From the NCBI GenBank assembly GCA_964606695.1, contig CAZSHG010000001.1, positions 22,239 through 86,238 of the forward strand: DNA of 64,000 nt. The letters are read 5' to 3'. The notes beneath the pieces are model-generated. The model did no database searches, was not told where the DNA came from, and saw nothing but the letters and a program-made list of their open reading frames with translations. Position 1 is the stretch's first letter. The number at the start of each line of letters is the position of its first letter. Made by a program: the position numbers and the translations under genes. The DNA comes from an uncultured bacterium. Lineage in GTDB: Bacteria; UBP14; UBA6098. Below, in pieces: positions 13,202-39,897 of the stretch.

Positions 13202-13236
13202 AAAAAACCCCCCGCTTTTTTGCGGAGGGTTTTTGT
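13202..13236 (-). terminator. Rho-independent terminator downstream of the 1590-aa gene
   Basis: Read on the - strand: CCCTCCGC-AAAAAA-GCGGGGGG followed by TTTTTTATAG. Read on the +, the same hairpin is followed by GTTTTTG. Located 20-55 nt after the stop at 13258. Confidence 0.6.
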
Positions 13237-13257: not shown

Positions 13258-16200
13258 TTACTTGATCAGCATTACCTTGTGTGTCGCGTTGAATTCTCCC
13301 GCAACCATACGGGCGAAGTAAACGCCGCTCGGCATCGAAGAAGCGTTCCAGGTGACGTTGTAAACGCCGCCGTCAAGCCTCTCGCTGACCAGAGTTTCCA
13401 CCCTCTTACCGGTAATATCGTATATCGCCAGCTCGACGTCGGAGTCCTTCGGGAGCTGGAACTCGATAGTGGTTACCGGGTTGAACGGGTTCGGGTAGTT
13501 GCCCGCAAGCGCGTAATCCTTCGGCAGTTTCGCATCGACTTCGTAGATTCCGGTATTCGGAATACCGATCTTCCAGAGGTAACCGGAAGCGGCGCGATAC
13601 TGCACATACGGATACGTGCCATCGACGATGCCGCCGAGATAAATCGCGGAGATAATCGTCTGGCAAGGCCCGTTATAGAAGAACGTCCTGAACGTCGTGT
13701 CCTGATCCCAGCCTACAGGGTTAGTTAATCCGCCGGAAGCCGAGAGAATGTCCACGAAATGATCGGCGGAACTGCTGTCATCGTAGTCGAAGGTATGCCC
13801 GACTGTGCTGTGCATCAGGTCGGCATTGCCAAAGAACCAATCGACGTTGAAGTCCGCCGCGCCGTCGTCCAGGAAGGAGAGACCCAGGTTATCGAAGAGA
13901 TCCTCGTCGTTGTAGTCCGCACCGAAGTCCGGGCCTTCGATAATCATCTTCTTACCAGAAGTCGCTCTGTAAGCCTCCAGTTTGGCTAACGCCGCCGAGG
14001 GCAGTTCCGTGTTGTCCGCATCGTTGATACCGAGCGCGACAACGACCAGCATATAATCGCCAAGGTTGTATCCGTCCAGCGGATCCGATTCGGAATCGTC
14101 GGTCGTAGCTACAACCGCGCTAAGTCCAAGATCGGTGGATTCGAGCATATCTACCCACCATTCGCCGACACCCATGGTGCCGCCGTTGCATGGCGTCGCG
14201 CCGTTATCCCAGTCGAGAACAAGGATGTCCGCGGGGTCGGGCGTATAAACGCTCGTCGCGCTTACGTTACCCGCGAGAACCGAATAGTAGCTTTCGCAAC
14301 CATACTCCACGACCACATCGTAATAATACGTTACGCCGTCTTCGACGGTTTCATCGTCGAAGGTAGCTGTGCCGTAAGAAGCGGAGCCAATTAGTGTAAC
14401 ACCGGGTGCGGTAACATCGATAAACGGCGTCTCGGAACGATAAACTCTATATGAATCCGGCATACAGCAATCTGTATCCGGTTCCGTCCAGGTCAGCGTA
14501 ATCGCCAGCGGATCGGAAGCAGGACGCGCAACGCTGTCGCCTTCAGCCGCGAGATCCGTTACCGGATCAAGACAGCAGAGCGAAACCGAGATCGTCGTGT
14601 CCGCGCTGACGTAGATACTATCAACCATCGCGGTCTTGTGATAGTCCGCGACGACTTCGACACTATACCAGCCGTGATCGACGTCGTCGAAAGTAACATT
14701 GCCACTTGCAGGCGTAGTTTCCATGCCGACGCCGGAAAGCGTAACTTCCGCACCGGACTCGTCGGACGCCTCGCAACCGAGATCGACCGAAACCGTTACC
14801 TCGACAGGTATCGTCTCCAGGTCGAAGTCCAGGTCGTCAAGGCCGTCTTCCGGAACTTCGAGAGTCGTGCAAGCCTCGGCGTAACCGGTATAGCTCGCGC
14901 AAATAGTTCCGTAGCCGATATTGGCGAAAACACAGTAAGCGCCAAGAGAATCTGTGGTTCCTGAAACAGCAACTCCAGGACCGTCGATTTCGATGCCCTC
15001 GGCTGGAACGCCATCGAGCATAGCGGTGCCACAAACCATAACGGTGGTTTCGCTCAGGTTGAAATCGACGTTGACATCGACCAACGCGACAGTAACCGTT
15101 TCCACAACAGAGCGATAACCCGTATGAGAGGCTATGAGAATATAGGTGCCCGGGATTATACCTACGAATTCGTAGTAACCCAGCGGGGAAGTAGCCGTAT
15201 TAACCCAGTCGAGAAGCGTAGTTCCAGTCGAATCGTAGAGTTCAATGTCTATATTATCGTCAGGCGATCCCATAAGTGAACCCGTTCCATAGATCATACG
15301 GCTATCGCACGGAACCATATCGTATGTCGGAACAGTGATAGTGGTATCGGCAATATCGCAGTCAACAATAACTACACTATCTTCGTCGGGATGCGGACAA
15401 TAATCATCTTCGGGATCCCAGAATGTAAGTTCGTGGGTTCCTAACGGTATATTGGCGAAGGAATAGAATCCGGAGCTATTTGTCGTGCGGAAAGAACCGC
15501 CGTCCAGATAAACGCGAATTCCGCTGTGATCGTCCGCGCCGTAGAGCATAACGTCGCCCTCGATATTGAATATTTCAAGTTCTTCGCCGACGAAACCGAG
15601 ACCAATATACAGTAAATCCGTGTTCGCATTGTAAACGATCGAATCGCCAACGTCCATGAGTGTCCAGGAATCATCGACCGCAGTCGGTTCCGGTGTCGCA
15701 AGTGGGAGCGAAATGTAATACAGATGCCACGCAGTATCCGCGAATACCGGCGATGTTGGCCAGGTAACCGTCACAGTGGGTGAACCAAGCGGATCTCTCT
15801 TAGCGATCTGCCATATATTCGGACGATCGCATGGGCCGCGCATATCTTTGATAAGCTTATCCGCCGGAGGATCGTCGTCGCAGGTGAAGTAGAATCCGGC
15901 ATCCGTAATGGGCGGAGGCTGAATCTGGTCAACACCGGCGTCGTAACCGGGCGAAGCGCCCTCGATCGTTCCGAAGGTAATGGTTTCCATCGATTCCGGA
16001 GTAGAACCCCAGGCCAATGTAATCGGAAGCTCGAATTCGGGCGAGCAACCTGCGGGGCCGGTGGTGAAAGTCCAGATTTCCGGATCCATTTCATTTGCCG
16101 GAAGCGCGTTGTCAGCCGCGTTAACTTCGACCGTGAATTCCGTATTCGGCGCCCAGGAAGGATCAGGCGTATAGCAGTAGCGATAACCGTTGGATAGAGT

Positions 16201-18030
16201 CGTAGAAGTAAACTCATCCGTTAAATCGACGTAATCGACCGAAATAGTTACCGAAGTAGGATCTACGCCGGTTCCGTAATCTATTACCTCGAAGCAAAGC
16301 GGGGTAGTCGGATCGTAACCGCCGCCACCAGTGCCCGTGCCTTCCATGGATATTTCGCGGACGATCGGAGGCATAGTATCTTCGAAAGCCGGCAGGAATC
16401 GGATTATGACCTGCTGATCGGAAGTGAATTCCGTCTCGTCGTAGGATTCCATGGAAACCCAGCTTGTCGGCGTAGTTCCTCTATCGACTACCGCATAGTG
16501 GAATTGGCCGGCATAGGGCAGTGCGCTATTATCCCAGGTTACGAATAAATCGCCCTCGGGTTCGAAAACATCTACTGTCCACTGCTTTAAACCGCTTTCC
16601 GTGCTACGAATATCTCTCGAAAGAGCGGGCACTTCGGGATGGGTTGGATCCATCAACGGGAAGTAGCCGCGCGGAGCGCCCGGGAACAGGAACTGCGGAA
16701 CGTCGAGCCCGCTATCGTAACCGTCCGTGCCCAGGTTATCTAGGCCGAGATAAAGGTTAGTTGCCGCTGTATCGGAACCTGAAATCGATAGAACTCGAAT
16801 GTTATAGGTAAATTCGGCTAGCGATTCCGCTTCTTCCGTAGTGAACGACCACTCGATCGTCTCGTCATTTCCCCAACCATCCTCGGCGTAAACGCTGACA
16901 TCGTATATTCCGCCGTAATTGAGGTTTTCGGGGGGGCAATACTGGACTGAAAACCAATCTGAACCGACACCTAATTCGCTAATGCTCAGATCGTCGTGGG
17001 AAACCTCTTCCCCGTCGAATTCGAAGACAATTGTGCTACTATCCACACCGCTTTCGGAATCTTTGATTATCACGCTTACGCAGGAAGTTACATCGACTCC
17101 TGTTGCGCCGTTAGCGGGATTGGGGTTCTCGAAATAGGGCGGGTAAACATCTGGAGGAATAACCTGCGTGAAGAAAGATACGACCGTATCTGCCACCATA
17201 CAATTCGCGGGATCGGCTAAATCACAGGCATTAACCGAATAAGTGATCATCGTGGAATCCGGCCATTCGCCGCCGGCGATAGCAGGATCGATAGTTACGC
17301 GATAACCGCCGACGATTGGATCCAGAACCATATCTCCGGCATCGACTCCCATCGAGTCTCCATCCCACCAAATACTAACCGTAATACTGGCGTCGTCCAC
17401 ACCTCTGTTGTCATCTTTGACGTTGAATTGAATCGGCAGATCGACGTCCACGCCGGCCTCGCCTGGGACAGGATCGAAACCATTAACATACGGCGCGATA
17501 GTATCGACCATACCCGACGGCATGAAACGGAATGCCACGTCTTCCATAACTCCAAATACGAATTCCGTGGTGGTTTCCATTGGCACCCAAAGAGTGTCGT
17601 CGAGGGTAGCAGGATCTATACCGTAAGTTATCGGAGCAACCCAGAAATATCCGGCTGATACCGGATCTGGTATTTCCAGTGTATCCCAAACTACGAAACG
17701 GTCATCCAGCCCGAAGTAACCCTCGTCCATAGCGACCCAGTATGTGTAATCGCCGGTCTCTATACCCCGCACATCGGTTTGTAGCTTGGTATATGCCGGA
17801 TGTAACGGATCGACAAGAGGAAAATACGCTCCCTTACCGTCGGGAGGCGAAAAATAAGGGACGTCTAAGAAGGCGTCGTAACCTGCGGTGGCTCCCGCAG
17901 TCATAGCCATTGTCAGATCGAAAGTATCTCCCGGAACGGGAACGATCTGAAAAGTAAAACTCCAGCTCTGGGCAAATGCTAAACTGACCAGCGCGAGAGC
18001 TACTACTAAGGTAATTTTGCCTTTTGACAT
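13258..18030 (-). CDS. Giant secreted multi-domain surface protein (1590 aa) with T9SS C-terminal sorting domain
   Basis: Signal peptide MSKGKITLVVALALVSLAFAQ. Three copies of a ~100-aa N-terminal domain (GYD.g.DVP.F..P....YFPL.DP.HP...). Ig-like (Big_5-like) repeats with GVD motifs. Carboxypeptidase-regulatory-like segments (GTYILIASHTGYRSVVETVTV). One FN3-like domain. C-terminus YPNPFNPVTTIEF...IYDITGKRVETL...SGVYFARMVAGEFNATHKVMLIK matches the T9SS CTD. Confidence 0.8.
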   Translation of the reverse strand: MSKGKITLVVALALVSLAFAQSWSFTFQIVPVPGDTFDLTMAMTAGATAGYDAFLDVPYFSPPDGKGAYFPLVDPLHPAYTKLQTDVRGIETGDYTYWVAMDEGYFGLDDRFVVWDTLEIPDPVSAGYFWVAPITYGIDPATLDDTLWVPMETTTEFVFGVMEDVAFRFMPSGMVDTIAPYVNGFDPVPGEAGVDVDLPIQFNVKDDNRGVDDASITVSIWWDGDSMGVDAGDMVLDPIVGGYRVTIDPAIAGGEWPDSTMITYSVNACDLADPANCMVADTVVSFFTQVIPPDVYPPYFENPNPANGATGVDVTSCVSVIIKDSESGVDSSTIVFEFDGEEVSHDDLSISELGVGSDWFSVQYCPPENLNYGGIYDVSVYAEDGWGNDETIEWSFTTEEAESLAEFTYNIRVLSISGSDTAATNLYLGLDNLGTDGYDSGLDVPQFLFPGAPRGYFPLMDPTHPEVPALSRDIRSTESGLKQWTVDVFEPEGDLFVTWDNSALPYAGQFHYAVVDRGTTPTSWVSMESYDETEFTSDQQVIIRFLPAFEDTMPPIVREISMEGTGTGGGGYDPTTPLCFEVIDYGTGVDPTSVTISVDYVDLTDEFTSTTLSNGYRYCYTPDPSWAPNTEFTVEVNAADNALPANEMDPEIWTFTTGPAGCSPEFELPITLAWGSTPESMETITFGTIEGASPGYDAGVDQIQPPPITDAGFYFTCDDDPPADKLIKDMRGPCDRPNIWQIAKRDPLGSPTVTVTWPTSPVFADTAWHLYYISLPLATPEPTAVDDSWTLMDVGDSIVYNANTDLLYIGLGFVGEELEIFNIEGDVMLYGADDHSGIRVYLDGGSFRTTNSSGFYSFANIPLGTHELTFWDPEDDYCPHPDEDSVVIVDCDIADTTITVPTYDMVPCDSRMIYGTGSLMGSPDDNIDIELYDSTGTTLLDWVNTATSPLGYYEFVGIIPGTYILIASHTGYRSVVETVTVALVDVNVDFNLSETTVMVCGTAMLDGVPAEGIEIDGPGVAVSGTTDSLGAYCVFANIGYGTICASYTGYAEACTTLEVPEDGLDDLDFDLETIPVEVTVSVDLGCEASDESGAEVTLSGVGMETTPASGNVTFDDVDHGWYSVEVVADYHKTAMVDSIYVSADTTISVSLCCLDPVTDLAAEGDSVARPASDPLAITLTWTEPDTDCCMPDSYRVYRSETPFIDVTAPGVTLIGSASYGTATFDDETVEDGVTYYYDVVVEYGCESYYSVLAGNVSATSVYTPDPADILVLDWDNGATPCNGGTMGVGEWWVDMLESTDLGLSAVVATTDDSESDPLDGYNLGDYMLVVVALGINDADNTELPSAALAKLEAYRATSGKKMIIEGPDFGADYNDEDLFDNLGLSFLDDGAADFNVDWFFGNADLMHSTVGHTFDYDDSSSADHFVDILSASGGLTNPVGWDQDTTFRTFFYNGPCQTIISAIYLGGIVDGTYPYVQYRAASGYLWKIGIPNTGIYEVDAKLPKDYALAGNYPNPFNPVTTIEFQLPKDSDVELAIYDITGKRVETLVSERLDGGVYNVTWNASSMPSGVYFARMVAGEFNATHKVMLIK

Positions 18031-18104
18031 ATGGCTTACCCCTTTCTTTGAAAATAAGTTTTAGATAAACGATACAATTTCAAAATCGCTAATTTTAACA
18101 ATCA

Positions 18105-18168
18105 AAACCCCTAAAAGGGGTAAGTTTTAGTTTCTTCCGGCGGCGGGGCGTCGAAGCCCCGCCGCCAG
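18105..18168 (-). terminator. Tandem terminator hairpins downstream of the 3109-aa gene
   Basis: Hairpin 1 at 18138-18167 (CGGCGGCGGGGC / GCCCCGCCGCCA, 11-12 bp). Hairpin 2 at 18107-18121 (ACCCCTTTTTAGGGGT on the - strand) followed by TTTGATTG. Both lie within 80 nt of the stop at 18185. Confidence 0.5.
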
Positions 18169-18184
18169 TTGAAGTCTGGTTGTT

Positions 18185-21100
18185 TTACTTCATGAGGGTC
18201 ATCTTACGAGTGGCCTTGAAGTCTCCTGCGGAAATCTTGTAGAAGTAGATTCCGCTCGGAACAGGCCTGCCCTCGTCGTCGCTTCCATCCCAGACGACGG
18301 AGCGATAACCGGCTTCCTGCTCGCCGTTTATCAGCGTGGCAACCTTCTGACCGAGGACACTGTAAACCTCGAGGGTTACTCTCGTGTCGGTCGGCAGTTC
18401 GTATTTGATTGCCGTAACTGCATTGAACGGGTTCGGCAGGTTCTGGCCGAGAGCGAAGGCGTCGGGGATAGCCACGCGGTCGGCAACCAGCTTGTGCGAA
18501 CCTGGAGTGATCTCGACGACGTCGCCGTCACCGTAAGTCGCTCCGTTGAGGGAGACGATCCAGTCGCCTTCCACCTCGAGGGTCGCTCTGTAGTTGCTTG
18601 TTGCATTGACTGTCCACTCGATCTTGCTGTCGGTAGTGCGGTAGTCGGTGTCGTAGCCGCCGCCGAGAACGAACTCGCTCTGTCCGACATGCGCCGGAAC
18701 CGCGTAGTGGTCGATGCCACGGTCGAAGTTCTCGGTAGCGATATCGGCCGCGCCGAATGTCAGCGTGCGACTATCCGTAACCAGCTTGCCGGTGAACAGC
18801 GGGGCGAACTGACCGTCTTTGACGGTATAGACGACCTTGCCGCCACGGGCACCCGGAACGTGAAGCACACATCCGCTTGGATCGGTAACCATGACAAGAT
18901 GTCCGCGACAATGTTCCAGAGTAGTGGTTAGATGGTAGTCGACACCACATTCATACCAGCGCGTTTCTGTCGGATCGATAGCACCTGCGGGATCGGTGTC
19001 CGGTGCGGTGAACAGAACGTCCGTCCAGGTCGCGCCTATCAGGTTCCAACCGGCCTCTAAGGTCACATCGAAGGACTCGACAGGTGCGCCGCAAAGCGTA
19101 ACTTCCATATCACTCGACGGATAGACCGCGTATCCCATACCGGCTTCGAGAGGTGTTCCAGCAGAAACCGGAATGTAGGTTCCGCCGATCATCTCGTAAA
19201 CTGGAGCGCCGCCGAACACGTCAACCGTAGTATCGGGTTCGACGCTGATCGCGATCAGGTTCCAATCCGTGCAGAGTTCGTAGGTGCAACAATGCTCTTC
19301 CGGAACCACATCGACATCGATGCAGGTCTCGTTGCCCGCAAGGTCGTAAGCGCAAACTTCGACAACGTCGCCCGGTGTAGGAGCAACCGGACCCCATGGA
19401 GTGGTAGCTACCGCGCCAGTCTCATCAACCCAGAACGGGCCGATTTCGACAAAGCCGCCAACTGTATCTACCGTTACCATCACGTAAACATACCCGTCGC
19501 CGAGTTCGTTCGTGAAGTTATCCTCGAGGAAGTTATCCCAGATAGCATCGACGTAAGCGGTGAAGTTTTCGCCGGTGGCGAGAACCAGAGCGCTATCGAT
19601 GGTCGGGGCTTCGATGTCGACCAGAGCGAGCTTACCTTCGGAAGTGCTAAGCCTGGCTTCTGAGTAATCGAGAACATTACCCGCGGCGTCGCGAGCTTTA
19701 CCGAGTAAGTAAGCAATACCCTGTGCGTCAAGTCCTTCGGGTAGTCCGGCGACATCCCACTCGTAAGTGTAAACGTCGTCGCCGAAGAACGCGAGCTGAT
19801 TGCCGAATGTATAGATCGGATCCGCATCTTCGTAGGAAGATGGAGTCATCGCACCATTCATGTAGTCCGGCTGACGCCAGAACGGATGATGGATGTCCCA
19901 CGCATCGAGATCGTCGTCCCACAGCCTGGCTTCGAGGTGATCGTTCGGATCGTCGAAGTCGTCGCCGTAGTGCGGCATACCGTCGATGGTGATTCTCCAG
20001 TGATCCCACATGCGGGTGTAGATGTAATTACCGTAGTTCCAGTAGGAAACCGGATCGCCTGCGGTTGCCGGATCAAAGACCGTTTCATCCCAATCGATGT
20101 CGATGAGGAACTCGTCCGCATTGACAACCCAGATGTAAACTTCATCCGGATAATCGATCGGGTTGATAGCCTTATACGGAACCGTCAGATCGTCAGATCT
20201 CAGCATGGAAACCTCGTAAGTCGGATCGTAAGTATCCAGTAAGATGTATGCGAGGTGATCCCAGTCGTGATAAACACTATCTGCAATGCTGAAAGTATGC
20301 TCGGTAGCGGTGATCGTGACCAGACCGTCGTAACGGTTATCCTGATCATCGACATCCCACTTATAGACCCAGTAGGTTCTACCTTCGACCATTACCGTAT
20401 CGTCGTCATCGAGCCTGACGTTGATTTCCAGGTTAGAACCGGAGATGTTGCCACCCCAGTAATCCTGAATATTCAGGTCGATGTATTCGACGTAGATATC
20501 GGTCGGGAGTTTCTCGAGCAATACATAGAGGCTATCGCCCGGGTAACCGCCGGATTCGACATACGGATGCATGAGCGGATCCGGATCGCCGGAGCTATAG
20601 TCCGGGTTATTGAAGGTTGTGAGTTGAACAACCGGCATAATCTGCGGAACTCTATGCAGTGAATCGACTCTCCAGAGGTCGGGCATACCGGCGGCCGCAA
20701 TAGCCGCAGTATCGATCCAGCCCCAGGTCGGCCAATCCGGCCACATATCTTCCATTGCGGAATCCCACCACGGGAAGATGTCGTCCGACTCCATAACCGC
20801 GGGATAATTGGCGGATACGCTGTTGAGCGCGTCCATCAGATTGTCGCCACGAGCGAGGAACGGAGGCCTGAGAATGGTCAGCGTATCCTCGTCGAAGAAG
20901 TCGAATTCGCAATCGGGGTGGTAATATTGCCAGTAGTCGCCAATCACACCTGATTCGGCAGTATCCACAACATGAATACCGTCGAAGGCTTGCCAGCTAA
21001 GCGTCCACATACCGGCCGGCAATCCTGACGGATCGCTGTATTCGAGGCAAATAACCTCGTCAACAGGATCGTAGTAAAGCGGCGACGTGGCATCGACGAT

Positions 21101-24100
21101 ACCGAAATCGAGGCCGGGGGCACCACCAGCAGGATAGAGCATGTAGTTAGAATCGTCTATCAGGCTGTGTAGCCAGATGGACATCTTATCTACCTGCTCT
21201 GACTGGTTGGTTTCCCAGCAAACCTTGAGATCGGTCGAACCGAAAGGCAGAACGGTGTGCATACCGTGAATCATCTGACCGCCGGATGAGGTGGTCATCT
21301 GAGGATCCGGCCTTTCGTTGTCGATGAGCACGTTAAGCAGAGTATCGGCGATATACGGGTTGGTCGGACGGAACCTGCTGAACGCCTCGAATAGAATCGT
21401 AGCGTAAAGCTCGTTATTCGAGTAGTCAACCGGCGCGCCGCCAAGCGTCGTATAGTATTCGTGTAACAGGTCAAGTTCATCATACGGCATCGATACCCAG
21501 GTGGTATTGCCGTAAATCGAGATGTTACCGGAATACATATCGTCTTCGAGCCAGTAGAACGTATGGTCGTAAGTGAATGTCGTTCCTGCTGGCCACGGTT
21601 CTTCGTGCCACCAGACGAGGAAGCGGACTGAATCCGTCTCGGCCAGTTCGTTATCCCAGTAAGCCGTTATCGGATGCATTCTGTCTTCGTCTTCGTAGAA
21701 CGAACAACGCGTAGAATCTGCTAAGACCGGGTCTGAAATGCTCCAACCGGAAAGGGTTAGAATATCGTCCGGCTCGCCACTCCAGGGATCTACGTGAGCG
21801 TCATCGAGAGTATCGATGCGCGGCCAGTAGATCATGCGGTATTCGGGATCGCCGGTTACTATGCGGATCGGGTATTCGATCGGGAGCATGTGATTGCCCG
21901 CATTGTCGTCGAATCCCTGAACGCGTAGTTTGCCGATACCGTCCATCGCGCCGTCGCCGGCGATAACCAAGTAACCGATCCATTCGCGATCGCTGTTCCA
22001 GCCGTAGTCGAGAGACTCGACACCGCCAGGAACCATCGGGGAATCGTCGGTTTCAGATAGACCAGGACGCGCACTCGGCATAACACCGGTAATATCCCTG
22101 TAATCTACGTAACGTTGCGCGAGCGGATAATGGAGACCACCCGGGCCGCCGCCGACCGTTTCAACCGGAAGAACCGGGAACCAGTGCGTCCAACCGTGCG
22201 GCTGGAACCTGACGATGTGACCGTAAAGGTGATCAGCTTCGCGCATGTCCATATTATCGTTGAACCACAGCCTCACATAAACAGTGCAAACATCAGTGAA
22301 GTTGTAGATGCCAACGATGCTATCCTGATCCGGAACGTCCCATGGGAGCTTGAATACGTTAATATCCCAGTCGTGCATGTAGGGATCGCCCAGAATCGGA
22401 ACGCCAAGAGAGTCGTAACCGATTGTATCCATTCCCCAGGTCGAGAGGGCAAAGCCCTTGACCTCAGGGAGACCGTTGTCCAGACCCACCTTGCGGCTGG
22501 TCTTCATAGCATAGTTGCCCAAACGGTCCTGAATGATAGCTTCGGCGTAAACGCTATCGGCGATAAAGATTGTATCTCTATCGAGATGTGTTTCGACCGG
22601 AACCGGAATACCGGGACCACTGCGGTCAAGGCCGTGGTATATCTCTATGCCGGGGGTTCCGATAGTCATTGTATCGGCAACCGAAAGTTCCTCGGCACAG
22701 TTAGCTATAACAAACGCCTCGTTAGACCACAGATAATGTGTAGCCGGATTCCAGACCATACCCGCGTTCACCGGAGGCATCGTGCCAAAGTCATAGATGA
22801 CGAAGTCCGATGTAGGATCGACAGCCGGAATCGGCCACTGGGTAGTCCAGTTCGGAGCCATCAGTGTGCCCGGAGCACAACCGACATGTCCGTCGACTAT
22901 GTCTTCGAGACGTAGCCTGATGGTATGGTTTGAATCGTGAATGAGTTCGCAGTTGACCTCATTGTAGCCGGTGGTAGCGTCCGGATCGCGGAAAACCGCG
23001 GTCGGAGCCTGCATATCGACTACATAGTCCCAACGGAATACATACTTCGTGAAGAACGTATCCGAAGCGAAATCATTCGGCTCACGAACGTTGAACTCGA
23101 ACCTGATTGCGATGCTATCCAGATGTTGCCATCCAATGATAGTATCGGTCACAAGCGCGGGATCAGTTTCGAGAGTATCGATTCTACGAATGGTGTATAG
23201 CCACTCTTCGGTCTGATCGATCGGTCCAATATGGAGTCTACCCCAGTCCACACATGCGGTGCGGGAAGGATAGTAGCTCATGAAGCACGGATCGCAGTGG
23301 CAGTCGTAGTATTCGTCGACAGTCCACACAAGCGCGCCGTCAACGTCATACAGATCGATAGTGATATGCGGAACGCGGAACGGCAGGGTATCCTCATCCG
23401 GATCGGTGCCAACGAGACATTCCCAGATGATGGAGTCTGTGCAGGTATAGATATCGGCGACGATGAAGTTCAGATCGTTAACCCAGAAATCGACGTAAGG
23501 ATCCCGGCTCTCCATAAGCGAGGACATACTGCTGTCGCCCTCTTCCCACTCGAGCTCCGGATCCATGCCGAGAGGATCGTGATTGATATATCTGCCCATC
23601 CATGCGTGCCAAACATTCGTATAATCACCCTTCAAGTCCGGAGGATAATTATAGGTATGAGGCGGATACATGAAGGCATCGTAGGCTTCATCGTTATACC
23701 AACCGACATTAGCAAGCCACGTCTGAGGGAATATCTGAAGACTATCGACTTGAATGAGATCCCAGTTCGGGTTCTCGTAGTTGTCGTAAGTGGTATCCAA
23801 CCAGAAGGTCACATCCATAGTATCGACGTTGATGTCGGTATAGTCGTGGATTCCGTAACGCCAGCTCATGAACCATGTGCCGGGATTACTCCACGAATCG
23901 TAGGTGTGCCACCAACGATAGGTGATACCACTGTTAACCGTGCGCTGGGTTGCGGGATACCACGGAACGTCCGGGCTATCGCCTGCGTAAAGCTCCCAGC
24001 GAACCTGATCGTAGGGCTGGAAGAAGTGGCAGGTAGCCTCGGAGCCGTCGCCGTAAAGCTGGACATAGGCACCACGGTCATCGTCCGGATCCTTGATGAG

Positions 24101-27100
24101 TTCAGCATAATAATACTGATACCCACGGCCGGGGATGTCGTGATAGGCCATGTGAATATCCAGCGGATAAGCGCCGCCGCTAAGCTTCATATCCTGGAAG
24201 ATGATCGTATCGACGTAAGTAACGCCGGGAGTGGTCATCGTATCCGTGAAGATAAGAAGCAGGTCGGCACCTTCGACGAGTTCCGTGTGCTGGATACCGA
24301 TATTGGCGACCCACTCGTCGCAATACATACCATGAACGTTGGCGGATACATCGTGAAAATACAGATACATAGTATCATTACATACCTGCGACATGTCAGC
24401 GCCGGTGAATATCGGCGGATGACAATCCACGAAGAAGTTCCAACGCGCAATGTGCGATACTTCGTAGTATAGATAATCCGGATCGAGTCTGTCGTAACCG
24501 CTGTTGCGACTCGGGACTTCGCAGTCCACGAAATGGGCAAGCGAACCATCCGAGCAGAAGAGCGAGTAGCTGGCAGAGTCGAATTCGGCCGGTGTCCAGG
24601 GATCGTTATCGTCGTCCCAACCCGTTACCGGACCGGCCACGCCATCCTCGGCCTGACAATCGGTGATTGCGTTGTCCCAGGCGTAAACGGTTACACAAAC
24701 CTTATCGCCCGGACGGAAGTGAGCTTCGTCTGTATCTGTCCTATAAGGATCCCAGGTTACTCTGAGTCCCCACTCGTTATACTTCTTGGTCAGGTTGAGT
24801 CCGACAGCGTCGGGTTCGCCCACGCAGAAGTTACGGCCGTCAGGAATAGATCCTGCGCCGGTATGATAGTAGGGGTGCCAGCTTCCATCACAGCCACGAA
24901 CCTTTAGATTAACGCAGAGGCGAGCTTCCTCATCGAGACTACCGGAATAAACACCGGAAGTTCGATTATATAGCATATCCTCGACATCGAGGTCATACAT
25001 GCTACATGCAATCTGATCGTAGATGTTAAGAGTGATGATCTGGAAACTGTCCGAGGTAACCCACTGATCCGGAGGATAGTAGAAAGTATCCGGTGCAGTC
25101 GGGCCTTCGAGGTCGATACGAATTATACCAAGAGTGTCGTAGGCATACTCGGTATAATAGGAACAGATACCAACGGCTTCCCACATAACAGGAACATGAT
25201 TGTCCTGAGTATTGCGGGTTCCATAGTTACCGTCGGCACCATTTGCGATACCCCAGGAACCGGACGGATGCGGGTCGATAACCCAGGCAGGCTCGTTCCA
25301 GTATGGCGGAACGAGCGTCCAGTCACCTATCATGCAGGTATCCCAGCGTTGTCCGTAATCGGGATCGTCAACGAGCTCGGTAAGGAGCACATAGACGAAA
25401 TCGCCGGAAGCAAACGGGACAAGGCCCGCCCAGCCGGGATGGTAAGTGATCAATTCCTCGAAATTGATCCACATCCTGGCATCGTAGCCGTTGTTTTCCT
25501 CGTCGATCCAAACACCATAGTTAACATCGTTTTCATTAACGATAATGGTGTCCCAATCGCCGGTGCAATGCTCGATAGCGAAGGTGATCTCGAAGTCGCG
25601 CCAGTTGATACCGGCACCACCCATACCACCAGGCCAGATATCGATTCCGTGGTTCGTGCGGTCATGAACGGCGTGATAATCATCATAGACGTCCAGTAAA
25701 AGCGTGGGCAGGCTGTCTGCAACCCAGCGCCAATACACATAGGAGCCTTCGATGTAGTCGCGTCGAACGTTAGAACCGGCAAACTCCATAGTCTCGTTGT
25801 CGTGTCCTTCGGGAGACGGACAATTGAGCTCGGCGTTCGGACCCGAAAGGTCAACCTTGAAGGTCCAGATAGTGTCGTTAACTACGCCGGGTGAGAAGGT
25901 AAAACCATAGTCATACCTGAAGTTGTTGGTTCTGCTGAAGCAACGGAACAGCACCTGAACGTAAGCGCCGTCGTCGAACATCGGAAGAACGACTGTGCCA
26001 GTCCTGGTTGTGTCGTTACCAACCATAACCACGAATGAGTCGGTTCCACATGCCGGATGAATCCAGGTCGCGAAAGCCTCGCTGTGGATATTATCCATAG
26101 TAGTCCAGCCTGAAGTGCTCCAGGGGCCACTACCGGAATTTCGCCAGCTGTGCTTAAGTTGCCAGAGCCAACCGGTTTCGTTGCCGCCGTTTGTGTCGTC
26201 GTAAGCGTATTCGAGAGGATTACGCCAGATAATCGAGTCTATACGACCCGGGAACTGACTACCCGGTGATGTTCCGAGGAATTCATCATTAATATAACGA
26301 ATCTCCATGAACGCTGAGTCAACACAAGTTCCGAAATCCTGAGTGGTAACAGAAATCGGCTGTTCTTCGTCCGCGGTGAAGATCGAATCGTTGATCTCCT
26401 CGCAGAGAACGCTGTCCGAATACCAGTCGTTGGTGGAAATCAGATTTCTCGGCCACAACTGCTGAATGAACGGCGGAATTTCATCCCAACCCTTGATCAT
26501 TTCACTGCGAGCCCAACGGCTTGCATCTGCAGGATCCGGGTAAGGATTACCATGAAGAACATCGGTGAGCGTGGAGGTCATATCGACCAGGTCGATGATC
26601 GGTGCGTTGTAGCGATAGCAGATCAGGTCTTCACGATCAGCGATTTCAACATAGAATGAGTCTGAATTAGAAATACCCTCGATACCACCGATTACATCGC
26701 CACACTCGTGGCATCCAGCCATCTGAAGAGCAACCCAGATACGATAGAACGGCAATCCATAGAGTGCGCTATTGAACGTTCCCTCATAAGGAATATTGAT
26801 AGCGTCCTCGAAATAGAAAGTCGTGCTCCACCATTTCCAGCCATTGGCCGCGGTAGAATCGAGGCTCCACTTGTTGGCTTCCAACAGTGTGTCCTCAGTA
26901 TGCGACGGACTGGAAGGATCATAGGTGTCCCTCGGCTGAATGAGGGTGTCGATGATCAATTGCTCGGCAATACCCATAATATCAATACGATCGAGAATAT
27001 CAACATCGGAAAGCGCGGTTACGCCCTTGTCGATGTAGAACTGGACACCGGTGAGAGTGTCCGACTCGGTCACGTCGACACTATAATGTATCGCCGTTGA

Positions 27101-27514
27101 CTCGGGATGAATCGGGGTTAAGTCTTCGTTCGGATCGAAGTCACGCGATCCAAACAACGTCAATTTGACGCCCCGGAGTTCAACGTTCTCAGTTCCTGAG
27201 AGTAAATCCAGGCGAAGAACCACGTTCTCGTGGCTCATACGAACGGGAACTTCCTCCCCGGTCGGGCTTAGCTCAAAGCTCGCACGTCTCCACGTGCTTG
27301 CTGGAGTATAGCTGGACACGGTCGAATAATCGGTCGTGTACCAGGAAGGAATATTGTCACCGTAATCGGGTCCACCTGGTGTCCCCTCTGGTGTAACAAC
27401 GTTGAAGGCGTTGCAGTACTGCCAGTCACTTCCACTCCCTCCTTGCGCGAATATCGCGCCGGCGGTCAAAAGAAAACTTAGCAGTAGGGCTGCAAATACG
27501 GTTTTTTTACCCAT
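18185..27514 (-). CDS. Giant secreted surface protein (3109 aa), Trp/Tyr/Asp-rich, with T9SS C-terminal sorting domain
   Basis: Uninterrupted 9.3-kb ORF. Signal peptide MGKKTVFAALLLSFLLTAGAIFAQ with AGGAGA RBS. No catalytic motif is recognisable. It contains a 'GWN' module near the C-terminus and ends with LPNPFNAVTAIKYELP...LEVYSVLGQKVATL...SGIYFYKISAGDFKATRKMTLMK (Por_Secre_tail). Confidence 0.8.
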   Translation of the reverse strand: MGKKTVFAALLLSFLLTAGAIFAQGGSGSDWQYCNAFNVVTPEGTPGGPDYGDNIPSWYTTDYSTVSSYTPASTWRRASFELSPTGEEVPVRMSHENVVLRLDLLSGTENVELRGVKLTLFGSRDFDPNEDLTPIHPESTAIHYSVDVTESDTLTGVQFYIDKGVTALSDVDILDRIDIMGIAEQLIIDTLIQPRDTYDPSSPSHTEDTLLEANKWSLDSTAANGWKWWSTTFYFEDAINIPYEGTFNSALYGLPFYRIWVALQMAGCHECGDVIGGIEGISNSDSFYVEIADREDLICYRYNAPIIDLVDMTSTLTDVLHGNPYPDPADASRWARSEMIKGWDEIPPFIQQLWPRNLISTNDWYSDSVLCEEINDSIFTADEEQPISVTTQDFGTCVDSAFMEIRYINDEFLGTSPGSQFPGRIDSIIWRNPLEYAYDDTNGGNETGWLWQLKHSWRNSGSGPWSTSGWTTMDNIHSEAFATWIHPACGTDSFVVMVGNDTTRTGTVVLPMFDDGAYVQVLFRCFSRTNNFRYDYGFTFSPGVVNDTIWTFKVDLSGPNAELNCPSPEGHDNETMEFAGSNVRRDYIEGSYVYWRWVADSLPTLLLDVYDDYHAVHDRTNHGIDIWPGGMGGAGINWRDFEITFAIEHCTGDWDTIIVNENDVNYGVWIDEENNGYDARMWINFEELITYHPGWAGLVPFASGDFVYVLLTELVDDPDYGQRWDTCMIGDWTLVPPYWNEPAWVIDPHPSGSWGIANGADGNYGTRNTQDNHVPVMWEAVGICSYYTEYAYDTLGIIRIDLEGPTAPDTFYYPPDQWVTSDSFQIITLNIYDQIACSMYDLDVEDMLYNRTSGVYSGSLDEEARLCVNLKVRGCDGSWHPYYHTGAGSIPDGRNFCVGEPDAVGLNLTKKYNEWGLRVTWDPYRTDTDEAHFRPGDKVCVTVYAWDNAITDCQAEDGVAGPVTGWDDDNDPWTPAEFDSASYSLFCSDGSLAHFVDCEVPSRNSGYDRLDPDYLYYEVSHIARWNFFVDCHPPIFTGADMSQVCNDTMYLYFHDVSANVHGMYCDEWVANIGIQHTELVEGADLLLIFTDTMTTPGVTYVDTIIFQDMKLSGGAYPLDIHMAYHDIPGRGYQYYYAELIKDPDDDRGAYVQLYGDGSEATCHFFQPYDQVRWELYAGDSPDVPWYPATQRTVNSGITYRWWHTYDSWSNPGTWFMSWRYGIHDYTDINVDTMDVTFWLDTTYDNYENPNWDLIQVDSLQIFPQTWLANVGWYNDEAYDAFMYPPHTYNYPPDLKGDYTNVWHAWMGRYINHDPLGMDPELEWEEGDSSMSSLMESRDPYVDFWVNDLNFIVADIYTCTDSIIWECLVGTDPDEDTLPFRVPHITIDLYDVDGALVWTVDEYYDCHCDPCFMSYYPSRTACVDWGRLHIGPIDQTEEWLYTIRRIDTLETDPALVTDTIIGWQHLDSIAIRFEFNVREPNDFASDTFFTKYVFRWDYVVDMQAPTAVFRDPDATTGYNEVNCELIHDSNHTIRLRLEDIVDGHVGCAPGTLMAPNWTTQWPIPAVDPTSDFVIYDFGTMPPVNAGMVWNPATHYLWSNEAFVIANCAEELSVADTMTIGTPGIEIYHGLDRSGPGIPVPVETHLDRDTIFIADSVYAEAIIQDRLGNYAMKTSRKVGLDNGLPEVKGFALSTWGMDTIGYDSLGVPILGDPYMHDWDINVFKLPWDVPDQDSIVGIYNFTDVCTVYVRLWFNDNMDMREADHLYGHIVRFQPHGWTHWFPVLPVETVGGGPGGLHYPLAQRYVDYRDITGVMPSARPGLSETDDSPMVPGGVESLDYGWNSDREWIGYLVIAGDGAMDGIGKLRVQGFDDNAGNHMLPIEYPIRIVTGDPEYRMIYWPRIDTLDDAHVDPWSGEPDDILTLSGWSISDPVLADSTRCSFYEDEDRMHPITAYWDNELAETDSVRFLVWWHEEPWPAGTTFTYDHTFYWLEDDMYSGNISIYGNTTWVSMPYDELDLLHEYYTTLGGAPVDYSNNELYATILFEAFSRFRPTNPYIADTLLNVLIDNERPDPQMTTSSGGQMIHGMHTVLPFGSTDLKVCWETNQSEQVDKMSIWLHSLIDDSNYMLYPAGGAPGLDFGIVDATSPLYYDPVDEVICLEYSDPSGLPAGMWTLSWQAFDGIHVVDTAESGVIGDYWQYYHPDCEFDFFDEDTLTILRPPFLARGDNLMDALNSVSANYPAVMESDDIFPWWDSAMEDMWPDWPTWGWIDTAAIAAAGMPDLWRVDSLHRVPQIMPVVQLTTFNNPDYSSGDPDPLMHPYVESGGYPGDSLYVLLEKLPTDIYVEYIDLNIQDYWGGNISGSNLEINVRLDDDDTVMVEGRTYWVYKWDVDDQDNRYDGLVTITATEHTFSIADSVYHDWDHLAYILLDTYDPTYEVSMLRSDDLTVPYKAINPIDYPDEVYIWVVNADEFLIDIDWDETVFDPATAGDPVSYWNYGNYIYTRMWDHWRITIDGMPHYGDDFDDPNDHLEARLWDDDLDAWDIHHPFWRQPDYMNGAMTPSSYEDADPIYTFGNQLAFFGDDVYTYEWDVAGLPEGLDAQGIAYLLGKARDAAGNVLDYSEARLSTSEGKLALVDIEAPTIDSALVLATGENFTAYVDAIWDNFLEDNFTNELGDGYVYVMVTVDTVGGFVEIGPFWVDETGAVATTPWGPVAPTPGDVVEVCAYDLAGNETCIDVDVVPEEHCCTYELCTDWNLIAISVEPDTTVDVFGGAPVYEMIGGTYIPVSAGTPLEAGMGYAVYPSSDMEVTLCGAPVESFDVTLEAGWNLIGATWTDVLFTAPDTDPAGAIDPTETRWYECGVDYHLTTTLEHCRGHLVMVTDPSGCVLHVPGARGGKVVYTVKDGQFAPLFTGKLVTDSRTLTFGAADIATENFDRGIDHYAVPAHVGQSEFVLGGGYDTDYRTTDSKIEWTVNATSNYRATLEVEGDWIVSLNGATYGDGDVVEITPGSHKLVADRVAIPDAFALGQNLPNPFNAVTAIKYELPTDTRVTLEVYSVLGQKVATLINGEQEAGYRSVVWDGSDDEGRPVPSGIYFYKISAGDFKATRKMTLMK

Positions 27515-27684
27515 AACGCCCTTCTCCTTTCCTTGTTTTAAGTGTTTTTAGAAACCCTAACACGTAATGTGCGATTTGGAATTTCCATTTACAGTTACCT
27601 AATTTTCTCAAAAGCATCTGTTCTTTTGCCTTTCGATTAATAAATAGCAAACATACCTCGCCGACCTTTCGGCAGGTTTGGTCT

Positions 27685-28011: not shown

Positions 28012-29559
28012 CTATAGCGTAATCGACGGATAAAACGTAAAGTCAAACTGCAAATCGAGTTGCCAGTAATCGCCCGTTTTTCCCTCGATGTGGTTTTTGT
28101 TCTCCTGATGACCATATTCCAGTCCGAAATTCCAAAATCCATATTTTCGGTAAAATCCGCTCCAGTCGATTTGAAAACCGGTCGTTTTTTCGACTACCCC
28201 GGTGGGGAACGGTTCGGAGTAAGGCCCTTCCACGTCCATCCAGGGCTCAGTCCATATAGCGGTTACCCTACCCGTCCCCTTGCGGAAATAGAAACACTCG
28301 ATATCCAAAAGAAGTTCCGGCATCACGAAGAAATCGATACCAAAACTGCTTCTATCGTAGTCGTTGCCGTATTCACTGCCGAGGTATCGATCCATGAACA
28401 GGTATCGATTCCATATCTCGTTCTGGTTATATGTCCAGTTTGTAACACCCTCGTATCTCGCCCTGAAGGTAACCCATTTCGAAAAAATCGCCGCTCCCCA
28501 ATCGAGTTGGCCGGCAATTCCAATTTCCGGCGGTTCCTGGTCGCCCTGCGTTTTCGCTTCCACCTGGATATCGTCCACCAACACTTCGCCGGAAAACCTG
28601 ACCGGCGGGAAAAGCACCTGGAAATCTCCGCCAAGCAATGTGTTGTCGTCCAGGCCGCGATTCAACTGCTCCGCGTGGAACCAGTAGAACGGCACCAGAT
28701 AAATCACCTCCGGCGACCGCCCCGGCCCGCCGTAGAGAACCTCCTCATGAAGCGCTACAGTGACGTGTTTCGATATAAATTCAATACGATGGCCGCTTAA
28801 GTATCGATTTGCGTTTCGAGATATATAGATATCTTCCGCAAGATATTCGTAGTAACGCATAGGGTCGAGGAATCCGCTGAATCCGGTGAGTCGGAAGGGG
28901 CCGAACCAGATTTCATAGTCCAGCCTTTCAAATGGGTCGTGCGCCTTGCCCAGGATTAATCCCTCGCCCCATAAAAGGTAATCCTTACCGAACTGAACAC
29001 GCCAGTCGTCTCCCGACGTGCCGATATAAACCTGGTCGGGACGCCCGGCAAATCCAGCCCATTGCCGGCCTCGATAATTCTCCTGGTGCGCCCACCTGAG
29101 GTTGACTATATAAGAAACGTATCCCTCGACAATCCCTTTCTTCATACCGCCGCCGAGTCTGAGGGTGGGATACAGCCTGTCGTCGGGGTCTCCTGGATTA
29201 TTGAGAATGCCATTAACTCCAGGTTCGATAAAAAAACTTATCGTATCACGTTTTGTGGCGGTTCTCATAAGTTGATACCGCAGTTTCTCCGCCCAGAATC
29301 CGGACGCACCTTCGAGGTTGTCCGGCAGTGTTTCCAGGATAACTCCGGATCTATCCGGCCAGGTGTTGGGTTGCGTCTCGATTTTCCCTCGTAGTTCCAA
29401 TTCGCGATATACGTCGATAATAGGCCACCTGTCGCCGAGATTCCTGCCGCTTATCGAAAAAAGGCTGTTTACCAAAAACAATAAGGCTAAAAGGGTAGAT
29501 ATTTTTCGGATTCGACAGGCGTTCATTTTCTTGGATTCTTTCCTTATACTATATAACAT
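28012..29559 (-). CDS. Putative outer-membrane beta-barrel protein (capsule-assembly Wzi-like?)
   Basis: 515-aa ORF with hydrophobic N-terminal signal (ISTLLALLFLVNSLFS). Rich in alternating aromatic/Gly beta-strand-like segments. Ends ...FDFTFYPSITL. Located at the edge of a polysaccharide export locus. A second ATG at 29526 with better RBS spacing is an alternative start. Confidence 0.4.
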   Translation of the reverse strand: MLYSIRKESKKMNACRIRKISTLLALLFLVNSLFSISGRNLGDRWPIIDVYRELELRGKIETQPNTWPDRSGVILETLPDNLEGASGFWAEKLRYQLMRTATKRDTISFFIEPGVNGILNNPGDPDDRLYPTLRLGGGMKKGIVEGYVSYIVNLRWAHQENYRGRQWAGFAGRPDQVYIGTSGDDWRVQFGKDYLLWGEGLILGKAHDPFERLDYEIWFGPFRLTGFSGFLDPMRYYEYLAEDIYISRNANRYLSGHRIEFISKHVTVALHEEVLYGGPGRSPEVIYLVPFYWFHAEQLNRGLDDNTLLGGDFQVLFPPVRFSGEVLVDDIQVEAKTQGDQEPPEIGIAGQLDWGAAIFSKWVTFRARYEGVTNWTYNQNEIWNRYLFMDRYLGSEYGNDYDRSSFGIDFFVMPELLLDIECFYFRKGTGRVTAIWTEPWMDVEGPYSEPFPTGVVEKTTGFQIDWSGFYRKYGFWNFGLEYGHQENKNHIEGKTGDYWQLDLQFDFTFYPSITL

Positions 29560-29579: not shown

Positions 29580-30758
29580 TTATAGCGGGTGGGAAGTCGT
29601 AGCGGGTTTTCTTTTCGATTCCGCCAATTCCAGTCCGATCTTGTAGTTATCCTGGCTATCCTTGACGCCGGCGACTTCTTTGAGGAGTATTTCATACCGA
29701 TTTATCACGTCTTCCCAGCGATAATACTTCTCGACACGTTTCTGTGTTCGACGCGCGTAGTAATCTCTCAGTTGGGGATTATCTATCAGTTCCTGGACTT
29801 TTTGCTTGAGGTCTTCGAGATCGTTCATCCGATAATGAACCCCCGAGTCGCCTATAGTTTCCAACTGCTCCGGGATTCCATTCACTACCACGCAAGTTCC
29901 CGCTCCCATAGCTTCAAGGAGGGCGGGGCTTGTTCCCTCGAGCTCGCTGGGACTGACGAAAAGATACGCCTGCTTGTAGAGCTGTTTCACTCCGACACCA
30001 TAGATTGCTCCCGGAAATATTGCCCCTGGAGGCGCTATCCGTTTCAGGTATTCCGTGTATTCGCGGTCGTATGGATTATCCCCGACTACGACCAGAGGCA
30101 TATCGGTTCTGACCTCGCCATAGGCTTTAAGTAGTTTGTCGATTCCCTTTTCGGGGATAAATCTTCCGACAAAAAGCAAATACCTTTTCGGTTCCAGACC
30201 GAATTTTACGAGAAAATTGGGTTCGGGTTCATCCTCTAAAATGGCACTACCATAGGGGATATAGACGGTTTCCGAATCATACTGGTTTTTATAGTATTCG
30301 CCGACCTTAAGGGAATCCACGACAATCCGATTGGAAAACAGCGTCGCAAAACGCTCCGACATGTGCATCCACATGCTTCCAAAAACCCCGAATTTTTTTC
30401 TACGCCATTCCACGCCGTCAACGGACGTGATTATCTTCTTACCAAAAAGCCTCATCAGGGGTATAAGATGCGAATTGCCGACGTTATAAAGGTGAATGAC
30501 ATCGAACTTTCTAAATATGGCATGGAGAGCGGAAAGCGTTGTGTGGCTGATCGTAGAGAGGTTGCGCGATTCTACCGAGGGCAAATAGCTTAACTTTACC
30601 CCATTCCAGATTTTGGGACGTCCCTTACGCCAGCCCCGGCAGTAAACAACGACTTCGTGCCCCCTATCGGCGAGAGCTTTAGCCGTAATCTCCGCGTTGG
30701 TCTCAAAACCGCCGTAGGAGGCGGGTATTCCCCTTATGCCTAATATCGCAATTCGCAT
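29580..30758 (-). CDS. Glycosyltransferase family 4 (GT4, GT-B fold)
   Basis: MRIAILGIRGIPASYGGFET... N-terminus and the E-x7-E region (SPSELEGTSPALLEAMGAGTCVV) are typical of GT4 retaining glycosyltransferases. Confidence 0.85.
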   Translation of the reverse strand: MRIAILGIRGIPASYGGFETNAEITAKALADRGHEVVVYCRGWRKGRPKIWNGVKLSYLPSVESRNLSTISHTTLSALHAIFRKFDVIHLYNVGNSHLIPLMRLFGKKIITSVDGVEWRRKKFGVFGSMWMHMSERFATLFSNRIVVDSLKVGEYYKNQYDSETVYIPYGSAILEDEPEPNFLVKFGLEPKRYLLFVGRFIPEKGIDKLLKAYGEVRTDMPLVVVGDNPYDREYTEYLKRIAPPGAIFPGAIYGVGVKQLYKQAYLFVSPSELEGTSPALLEAMGAGTCVVVNGIPEQLETIGDSGVHYRMNDLEDLKQKVQELIDNPQLRDYYARRTQKRVEKYYRWEDVINRYEILLKEVAGVKDSQDNYKIGLELAESKRKPATTSHPL

Positions 30759-31627: not shown

Positions 31628-31638
31628 TTTTCCGTGGT

Positions 31639-33210: not shown

Positions 33211-33230
33211 TACTATTATCGGGGAATTTT

Positions 33231-39767: not shown

Positions 39768-39784
39768 TTTGACCTCATATTTAT

Positions 39785-39855
39785 TCTGGGGTGGGAGGAT
39801 TCGAACCTCCGATAACGGGTCCAAAGCCCGTTGGCTTGCCACTTGCCGACACCCC
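39785..39855 (-). tRNA. tRNA-Gln (anticodon UUG)
   Basis: Manually folded cloverleaf: 7-bp acceptor stem with U1-A72 pair and G73 discriminator (as in E. coli tRNA-Gln). 3-bp D-stem with GG in the D-loop. Anticodon stem ACGGG/CCCGU with loop CUUUGGA. T-loop UUCGAAU. CCA not encoded. Confidence 0.8.
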
Positions 39856-39897
39856 ATCGATTAGTTGAAGATGCGGCTGATTGCTAACACCCTTAAA

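Follow-up and report, generated by a model that had tools for sequence, protein, structure and literature searches.

SprB of Flavobacterium is a highly repetitive surface protein that carries a type B sorting domain and has a PorP/SprF-like barrel as its partner. Characterized Wzi proteins are outer-membrane capsule lectins that nucleate the capsule on the cell surface. The tfsA and tfsB genes of Tannerella forsythia lie side by side in the same orientation. The TfsA and TfsB proteins are type IX secretion system (T9SS) cargo with C-terminal sorting domains; they make up the surface layer (S-layer), which T9SS mutants lose (PMC4175972), and T9SS cargo is tethered by a glycolipid anchor (PMC7468200). 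We analyzed a 64,000-nucleotide stretch of DNA (the window) from an uncultured bacterium of the UBP14 lineage (contig CAZSHG010000001.1, positions 22,239 to 86,238), in which two neighboring genes on the minus strand encode very large T9SS cargo proteins. Gene B (18185..27514, stop codon included) encodes a non-repetitive giant protein of 3109 aa, and gene A (13258..18030, stop codon included) encodes a mosaic protein of 1590 aa. The gene upstream of B, on the same strand, encodes a Wzi-family outer-membrane beta-barrel protein of 515 aa (28012..29559; Caps_assemb_Wzi, PF14052) and is the first gene of a conserved trio. Its sequence and its relatives show the trio to be a vertically inherited, lineage-specific three-gene module, a putative envelope module of one uncultivated lineage of the Fibrobacteres–Chlorobi–Bacteroidetes (FCB) group. 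By analogy with TfsA/TfsB, we tentatively read it, at somewhat less than probable, as a surface coat that is particular to this lineage, exported by the T9SS, and held by a Wzi-type anchor of its own.

The likeness to TfsA/TfsB lies in two adjacent, co-oriented genes for large sorting-domain surface proteins, a pair that is conserved in all loci. B is approximately 2.5 times larger than either Tfs protein, and the likeness is one of gene layout and sorting domains, not of sequence comparison. Unlike TfsA/TfsB, the trio includes a conserved Wzi-type barrel gene, its host lies outside Bacteroidota, and a lattice is only proposed here. As with SprB/RemA of Flavobacterium, the gene of a giant T9SS surface protein adjoins that of a dedicated outer-membrane beta-barrel; however, B has no repeats and no match to the SprB-repeat Pfam model, the sorting domain is of type A, and the barrel belongs to the Wzi family. 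NCBIfam detected only the type A domain and no type B sorting domain, and CHU_C scored 23.0 bits on B, below its cut-off of 27. The barrel resembles Wzi of the group 1 capsules of E. coli and Klebsiella in that it matches the Wzi profile over nearly its full length and ends a Wza/Wzx/Wzy cluster in the window, whereas the match is at threshold and the invariant genomic partner is the gene of a giant protein rather than capsule genes.

An earlier note on this DNA, made from its letters, had proposed two adjacent, co-oriented giant open reading frames (ORFs) of 1590 and 3109 aa, each with a signal peptide, a T9SS sorting domain, and terminator hairpins of its own. We recovered the exact ORFs on the minus strand, and NCBI gene calls on a contig of 219,627 bp give identical products (approximately 340 kDa for B and 170 kDa for A). 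The signal peptides were read by eye. That of A (MGKKTVFAALLLSFLLTAGAIFA followed by Q) ends in AFA and that of B (MSKGKITLVVALALVSLAFA followed by Q; 27446..27514, minus strand, residues 1–23) is cleaved between IFA and QG; both are kept in the family consensus, in which FAQGxGSDWQY is conserved for B. The T9SS type A sorting domain of A (13261..13497, minus strand, residues 1512–1590) scored 46.8 bits with TIGR04183 and 43.7 bits with PF18962, and that of B (18188..18436, minus strand, residues 3027–3109) scored 36.3 bits with TIGR04183, for which the cut-off is 23, and 38.8 bits with FlgD_ig. The core reading of the note, giant T9SS type A cargo at the cell surface, holds; both sorting domains score above curated cut-offs. 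Downstream of each of the two genes lie GC-rich hairpins with T-runs after them. Full-length homologues in at least 20 other genomes indicate that A and B are neither chance ORFs nor pseudogenes. B, which had been described as Trp/Tyr/Asp-rich, contains D 10.9%, W 3.9%, Y 5.9%, and K 1.3%, but the acidic, Lys-poor character is common to all secreted proteins of the window (pI 4.05–4.7), and only Trp stands out. The higher GC content of the locus probably goes with its Asp/Gly/Trp/Pro-rich, Lys-poor composition.

The trio was then defined by its relatives. Gene order was taken from recorded gene calls and from our own ORF and BLAST analysis, and the order Wzi-like gene, B, A was found in every related locus with context, at B identities of 33–82%. 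A reciprocal test in metagenomes started from the barrel and covered barrels with at least 31% identity and more than 800 bp of downstream sequence; B lay directly downstream in 16 of 16 loci. Barrels at 28–31% identity occurred in other contexts, without B. Against Caps_assemb_Wzi, the window barrel scored 30.8 bits (cut-off 30.1) over profile positions 70–387 of 392, and 12 of 15 members of its family matched the model (best E 6.5e-12); by sequence, the barrel is a genuine though marginal member of the Wzi family. The check for homologous gene pairs in related genomes that had been suggested was therefore strongly positive, as the pair always occurs together. However, the true unit is not the pair but the trio, since the upstream barrel gene is equally conserved.

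The B family consists of 26 full-length homologue clusters (2947–3387 aa, 33–82% identity, 100% coverage). Past these, the score falls from 3131 to 140 bits and the rest match the sorting domain only. A 25-sequence profile search for a wider family returned the same 26 members and then sorting-domain matches only. Full-length homologues of A share 26–74% identity. Among 185,579 species-level genomes, 20 carry B, with one locus per genome; all are metagenome-assembled genomes of anoxic habitats, Guaymas, Zodletone, and Auka among them, and where labelled they are 'UBP14' or 'Candidatus Zixiibacteriota'. The record titles place the hosts in sediments and vents.

In the window, a complete-looking Wzx/Wzy-type polysaccharide cluster (29580..38064, minus strand), assigned on the basis of Pfam, lies directly upstream of the trio and encodes a Wza-like protein with Poly_export and SLBB domains, a GNVR/Wzz-like protein, a Wzy-like protein (Wzy_C), a Wzx flippase, RmlD, and a family 4 glycosyltransferase (GT4). 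RmlD and/or GT4 are kept upstream of the trio in related loci L005–L007, L009, L010, L012, L013, and L022. In L002, L004, and L014–L021, the polysaccharide genes are replaced by those for LemA, a ferredoxin, a GGDEF regulator, and a TPR protein, and the trio is unchanged. As the trio stays intact where the polysaccharide genes are replaced, the conserved core is Wzi-B-A.

Divergence within the family was compared at three of these loci. In L005, L006, and L010, respectively, identity to the window was 79, 61, and 40% for B, 72, 62, and 48% for RmlD, and 67, 46, and 30% for A. The divergence of B thus tracks that of cytoplasmic enzymes of the same genomes (RmlD comparison), and the lower identities of A indicate that A evolves faster than B. 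The domain order of B is invariant in every genome and B is always single, whereas A is present in one to three copies per locus. Zixibacteria-type relatives carry two to three tandem A paralogues (1438–1576 aa) after the single B (L001/L010, 19368–29180; L003/L011, 9339–22041; L013, 19059–30723), which suggests exchangeable partner subunits. The word island in the earlier note, taken in the sense of horizontal transfer, did not hold: the locus is syntenic and co-diverges with its neighbors, and a horizontally acquired island was ruled out on these grounds. A B-like gene of 24% identity was seen in L024 (10001–23415) as several ORFs on a contig with 200 Ns, with no Wzi-like or A-like neighbor detected at that locus. 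It may belong to a more remote branch of this family, or it may be a copy that is broken.

B is a long, evenly conserved chain. Outside the sorting domain, it had no match in Pfam, NCBIfam, or PDB, either as a single sequence or as a 25-member profile, so that approximately 2900 aa of this protein are unmatched; over half the length of A likewise had no match in Pfam, NCBIfam, or PDB sequences. The statement that neither protein corresponds to a characterized family therefore remains valid for most of both lengths, as does the statement that B has no recognizable catalytic motif, none having been found in searches of Pfam, NCBIfam, and PDB or in motif scans. Thioester, zincin HExxH, CxxCH, LPxTG, and other motifs were absent from B and A or gave isolated, non-conserved matches. 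No internal repeats were found in B by BLASTP self-search, and all-against-all hhalign comparison of 160-aa profile windows gave no self-match of 90% or more over residues 1–2900, the X module being the sole exception. This module (18455..18802, minus strand, residues ~2905–3020; LTFG..A..FD.G.D) is common to B and A: residues 2905–3020 of B align to residues 405–524, 23–108, and 664–772 of A with an hhalign probability of 96–97%. Conservation is flat along the whole chain (0.46–0.70 per 100-aa block). Junctions of the form 'D.AGN ... [VIL]D...P' recur along B, and this pattern in the sequence suggests approximately ten large and mutually unrelated immunoglobulin (Ig)-like units.

An AlphaFold2 (AF2) model of residues 24–1200 of B (1177 residues) was almost entirely beta, with a mean predicted local distance difference test (pLDDT) score of 63.9; the confidence was good for approximately the first 290 residues, fair to ~540, and poor beyond ~690. 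Structural matches of this region were generic Ig-like only, with an archaeal S-layer protein and Ig modules of cell surfaces among them, and the Ig domains of the giant adhesin SiiE were among the best. The top Foldseek matches were alpha-2-macroglobulin/complement-like multi-MG proteins, which are long strings of beta-sandwiches. We rejected this identity because the TM-score was ~0.1 and B has neither the CxEQ thioester motif nor sequence similarity to these proteins; the resemblance is only that of many beta-sandwiches in a row. B contains 47 cysteines. The codon usage of B (effective number of codons (ENC) 47.7, compared with 57.7 for ribosomal protein L25) was uninformative as a proxy for expression. 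At residues 2221–2224, B reads ARGD, with Arg and Gly invariant across 25 family members; the motif is probably structural. A 616-aa secreted protein elsewhere in the window (6288–8138, plus strand), which had no Pfam or NCBIfam match, has a module of approximately 120 aa (residues 466–587) in common with B homologues. By our own estimate from position, this corresponds to the 'GWNLIG' domain at B ~2745–2870.

A is built from several kinds of module. Its distal part (15598..17967, minus strand, residues ~22–811) holds X modules and Ig-like domains, with Big_5 at residues 296–398, and is followed by approximately four CarboxypepD_reg/prealbumin-like beta-sandwiches (14578..15570, minus strand, residues ~821–1151). 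The X module of A is unannotated, measures ~140 aa, and reads LTFG..ATDGYD..D.P; copies lie at residues 22–170, 405–545, and 658–811, and the Ig-like domains come after the first two. Comparison of 160-aa windows by hhalign gave internal repeats among residues 22–160, 406–536, and 658–800 and between 321–462 and 581–720, and repeats also occur in the run of sandwiches. Pfam gave 39.9 bits for Big_5 and 67.5 bits for CarboxypepD_reg in two stretches, in addition to SdrD_B, PEGA, and SpaA, and the A family profile matched the tandem domains of NOMO2 in a PDB profile search (1.3e-33). Sequence and profile searches of Pfam, NCBIfam, and PDB gave only beta-sandwich families for A besides the sorting domain. 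The description of A as a mosaic was thus borne out by Pfam for its Ig-like and CarboxypepD_reg modules. Its FN3 modules were not: an FN3-like stretch lies between the sandwiches and the alpha/beta domain described below, but Pfam gave only a sub-threshold fn3_3 match for A, and some relatives carry PF00041.

The earlier note had also pointed to a Cys-containing alpha/beta domain in A. The domain is real: the AF2 model of this region (13531..14238, minus strand, residues ~1265–1500) had a pLDDT of 85.6 and a flavodoxin-like GATase1 fold of the ThuA/GH42-trimerization/GIFT type. The cysteine, however, is not conserved. The GATase1 fold also occurs in class I glutamine-amidotransferase-like domains that are non-catalytic, namely ThuA-like domains, the GH42 trimerization domain, and the GIFT domains of IFT52/GldG, and a GATase1-like fold is a trimerization or accessory domain in GH42 enzymes, IFT52, and OST48. 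The polysaccharide enzymes PelA, Agd3, and GH42 have accessory domains that the domain of A resembles. It shares 10–13% identity with class I glutamine-amidotransferase-like domains and matches no Pfam model. The invariant residues of its family are DxDNG, EGxDFG, and an N, a Y, and a D, without the Cys-His-Glu triad of class I glutamine amidotransferases. The sole Cys near the N-terminus of the domain in A varies (ATPxxGG), and the strand-turn at which the nucleophile elbow would lie reads EG[PA]DFG in our own reading of the strand order of the model. A Cys that varies makes the chemistry of a glutaminase or cysteine peptidase unlikely, and a catalytic amidotransferase or cysteine peptidase was ruled out for this domain. 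An exhaustive profile search found 189 representative proteins with the domain at E <=1e-3. Ten of these proteins were sampled; none had a Pfam match on the region and seven had a T9SS sorting domain. The domain is a mobile module in many T9SS cargo proteins, and it also occurs as stand-alone proteins of 240–280 aa.

The two best promoter-like sites of the region lie in the 497-bp spacer that separates B from the barrel gene. The first, P1 (27854..27881, minus strand), reads TTGACT-16-TATATT after a T-run, matches 10 of 12 consensus positions, and is conserved in an alignment of six close loci. The second, P2 (27685..27713, minus strand), reads TTGACA-17-TATTTT, also with 10 of 12 positions, and its AAAAAAGgtCTTGACAg and TATTTT are invariant in the six loci. 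Directly after the -10 box of P2 lies a GC hairpin, CTGCCG-loop-CGGC (27659..27674, minus strand). The hairpin block AACCTGCCG...GGC is invariant in the same alignment (A8), with the stem kept through loop changes, and it is probably a 5'-terminal, and possibly a stabilizing, mRNA stem-loop. Tandem sites of the form TTGAC(A/T)-N15-19-TAnnnT were present upstream of B in 15 of 15 related loci scanned, with leaders of 125–450 nt. By our own rough estimate, at most ~0.1 matches are expected by chance per spacer, so that the tandem pair is far beyond chance. No such site was found before A. The B-A spacer (18107..18165, minus strand) holds a perfect 11-bp GC hairpin and then a hairpin with a T-run (terminator-like site 18121–18107), a candidate partial terminator or 3' stabilizer that may set the B:A ratio. 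Since only B has recognizable promoters, A is probably read through from B despite this hairpin, and the sequence is consistent with one strongly expressed B(-A) transcript. A terminator-like hairpin with a T-run follows A (13202..13229, minus strand; CCCTCCGCAAAAAAGCGGGGGGTTTTTT). S-layer genes typically have tandem promoters and long, stable leaders.

The intact genes, the sorting domains, the conserved trio, the folds, and the conserved promoters are observed here, whereas we infer that the proteins are secreted and anchored, that they form a lattice, and what part the Wzi-type barrel plays. B and A would be made from the strong tandem promoters as one long-leader transcript and would pass the inner membrane by the Sec route. 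The T9SS would recognize their C-terminal domains of type A and move the proteins across the outer membrane, where the sorting domain would be removed and a glycolipid of the surface would tether the new C-terminus. There, B and A would form a permanent S-layer-like protein coat. B would be its invariant, single-copy main subunit, a fixed series of unique beta-sandwich domains, and A a stalk-like partner, with X/Ig modules at its distal end, then a rod of CarboxypepD_reg domains and, close to the membrane, an amidotransferase-like domain that would serve oligomerization or sugar binding, not catalysis. By analogy with the anchoring of group 1 capsule by Wzi, the Wzi-type barrel would be the docking or nucleation site in the outer membrane.

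The main rival is that B and A are giant surface adhesins for particles, minerals, or cells, with the Wzi-like barrel as their base in the manner of the SprF/PorP-like partner of SprB-type proteins. Both are large beta-sandwich surface proteins with T9SS sorting domains, SiiE Ig domains and cell-surface modules are among the best structural matches, the unannotated X modules farthest from the C-terminal anchor could bind ligands, and sediments and vents are the habitats of the hosts. However, adhesins of such sizes normally have many near-identical repeats and evolve fast, whereas B is repeat-free, evenly conserved in the manner of housekeeping enzymes, single-copy, and invariant in domain order in every genome; moreover, its sorting domain is of type A and not of the type B that pairs with PorP/SprF. 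We therefore consider adhesins somewhat unlikely. We also considered that B and/or A are extracellular polymer-degrading enzymes or scaffolds with catalytic domains too divergent to recognize. The searches and motif scans gave no catalytic family or motif in either protein, the GATase1-like domain matches a non-catalytic accessory domain and is without the triad Cys, and the modelled third of B is all beta-sandwich, which makes this alternative quite improbable. The absence of repeats, uniform enzyme-like conservation, single copy, fixed domain order, promoter architecture, and absence of a catalytic signature together fit a coat better than an adhesin or an enzyme.

A further alternative takes the trio as an accessory of the Wzx/Wzy/Wza system, in which B and A bind or cross-link polysaccharide and Wzi anchors the polymer. 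In the window, genes for Wza, Wzz-like, Wzy, Wzx, RmlD, and GT4 proteins lie directly upstream of the trio, RmlD and/or GT4 are linked to it even in the distant loci L010, L012, L013, and L022, Wzi is a capsule lectin in characterized members, and the GATase1-like domain of A resembles accessory domains of PelA, Agd3, and GH42. However, polysaccharide genes are absent nearby in about half of the family, with Wzi-B-A intact, indicating that the tight linkage is that of Wzi with B and not that of Wzi with polysaccharide genes. This reading, which we regard as unlikely, overlaps the surface-coat model rather than excluding it. Chance adjacency, decaying pseudogenes, or an assembly artefact deserve hardly any weight: nothing pointing to them was found, the only fragmented copy with Ns being the remote L024, whereas the reading frames run uninterrupted over 3109 and 1590 codons, the genes are also called in the NCBI record, and full-length homologues in identical gene order occur in more than 30 independent assemblies.

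Several points weigh against the surface-coat reading. A surface layer in this lineage is read from sequence alone. The AF2 model of B, of moderate confidence as a whole (mean pLDDT 63.9) and poor beyond ~690, spans residues 24–1200, and the following ~1700 aa (1200–2900) could hide a functional domain. A chain of 340 kDa without repeats and with 47 cysteines is unusual among known S-layer proteins. The codon bias of B says nothing on its expression level, and promoter consensus matches do not prove transcription. The Wzi assignment barely reaches the Pfam cut-off, and a sequence search with the family profile gave no solved structure of a Wzi protein. Finally, no core T9SS gene is present among the annotated ORFs of the 64-kb window, and the machinery is assumed.

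As a kind of system, T9SS-delivered surface proteins are known. In the databases and literature searched, we found no description of this family, of its size and non-repetitive build, of its obligatory Wzi-type partner, or of the host lineage in this respect, and literature searches on Zixibacteria and T9SS, UBP14, and Wzi and T9SS gave nothing relevant. It is possible, if rather doubtful, that the trio makes an undescribed surface layer with a 340-kDa non-repetitive main subunit of approximately a dozen unique domains, T9SS export outside Bacteroidota, and docking to the outer membrane by a Wzi-type lectin barrel recruited from capsule assembly to that of a protein layer. To our knowledge, such a subunit would exceed characterized S-layer proteins in size. 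For uncultivated FCB-group lineages such as UBP14 and Zixibacteria, whose cell envelopes are essentially uncharted, the trio offers a candidate marker of the dominant surface structure; it is compact, has sharp bounds, and keeps strict synteny. It adds approximately 3000 residues of conserved protein without an annotated domain to sequence space, together with two unannotated modules: the X module, present here in A and B, and the GATase1-like domain with its 189 representatives, many of them in T9SS cargo. The link between T9SS cargo and a barrel of the Wzi type could broaden the picture of how the cell keeps T9SS substrates at its surface. Were B only an adhesin, it would still represent a new protein family, of routine interest.

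Other features of the window were also recorded. Four proteins with sorting domains are encoded within the 64 kb, which supports the presence of T9SS machinery in the host indirectly only. Downstream of A, the segment 8151–13122 encodes a DUF4388 protein, a 122-aa ORF, a histidine kinase-like ATPase, Usp, and a 322-aa T9SS cargo protein; this block is mostly or wholly conserved in the close clade L005–L008 and not in distant relatives. On the plus strand, 42400–43653 encodes a GH114 glycoside hydrolase that carries a T9SS sorting domain and, nearby, 48260–49531 encodes a divergent polysaccharide deacetylase, a hint of exopolysaccharide remodelling. A tRNA-Gln(TTG) gene (39786–39856, minus strand) lies inside the mechanically called ORF 38784..39857, and the 5' part of this ORF is therefore probably non-coding. 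In six secreted proteins of the window (A, B, and those at 6288–8138, 42400–43653, 59367–61673, and 35698–38064), Gln follows the predicted cleavage site, a pattern that recalls the Bacteroidetes 'Q-rule' of pyroglutamate N-termini.

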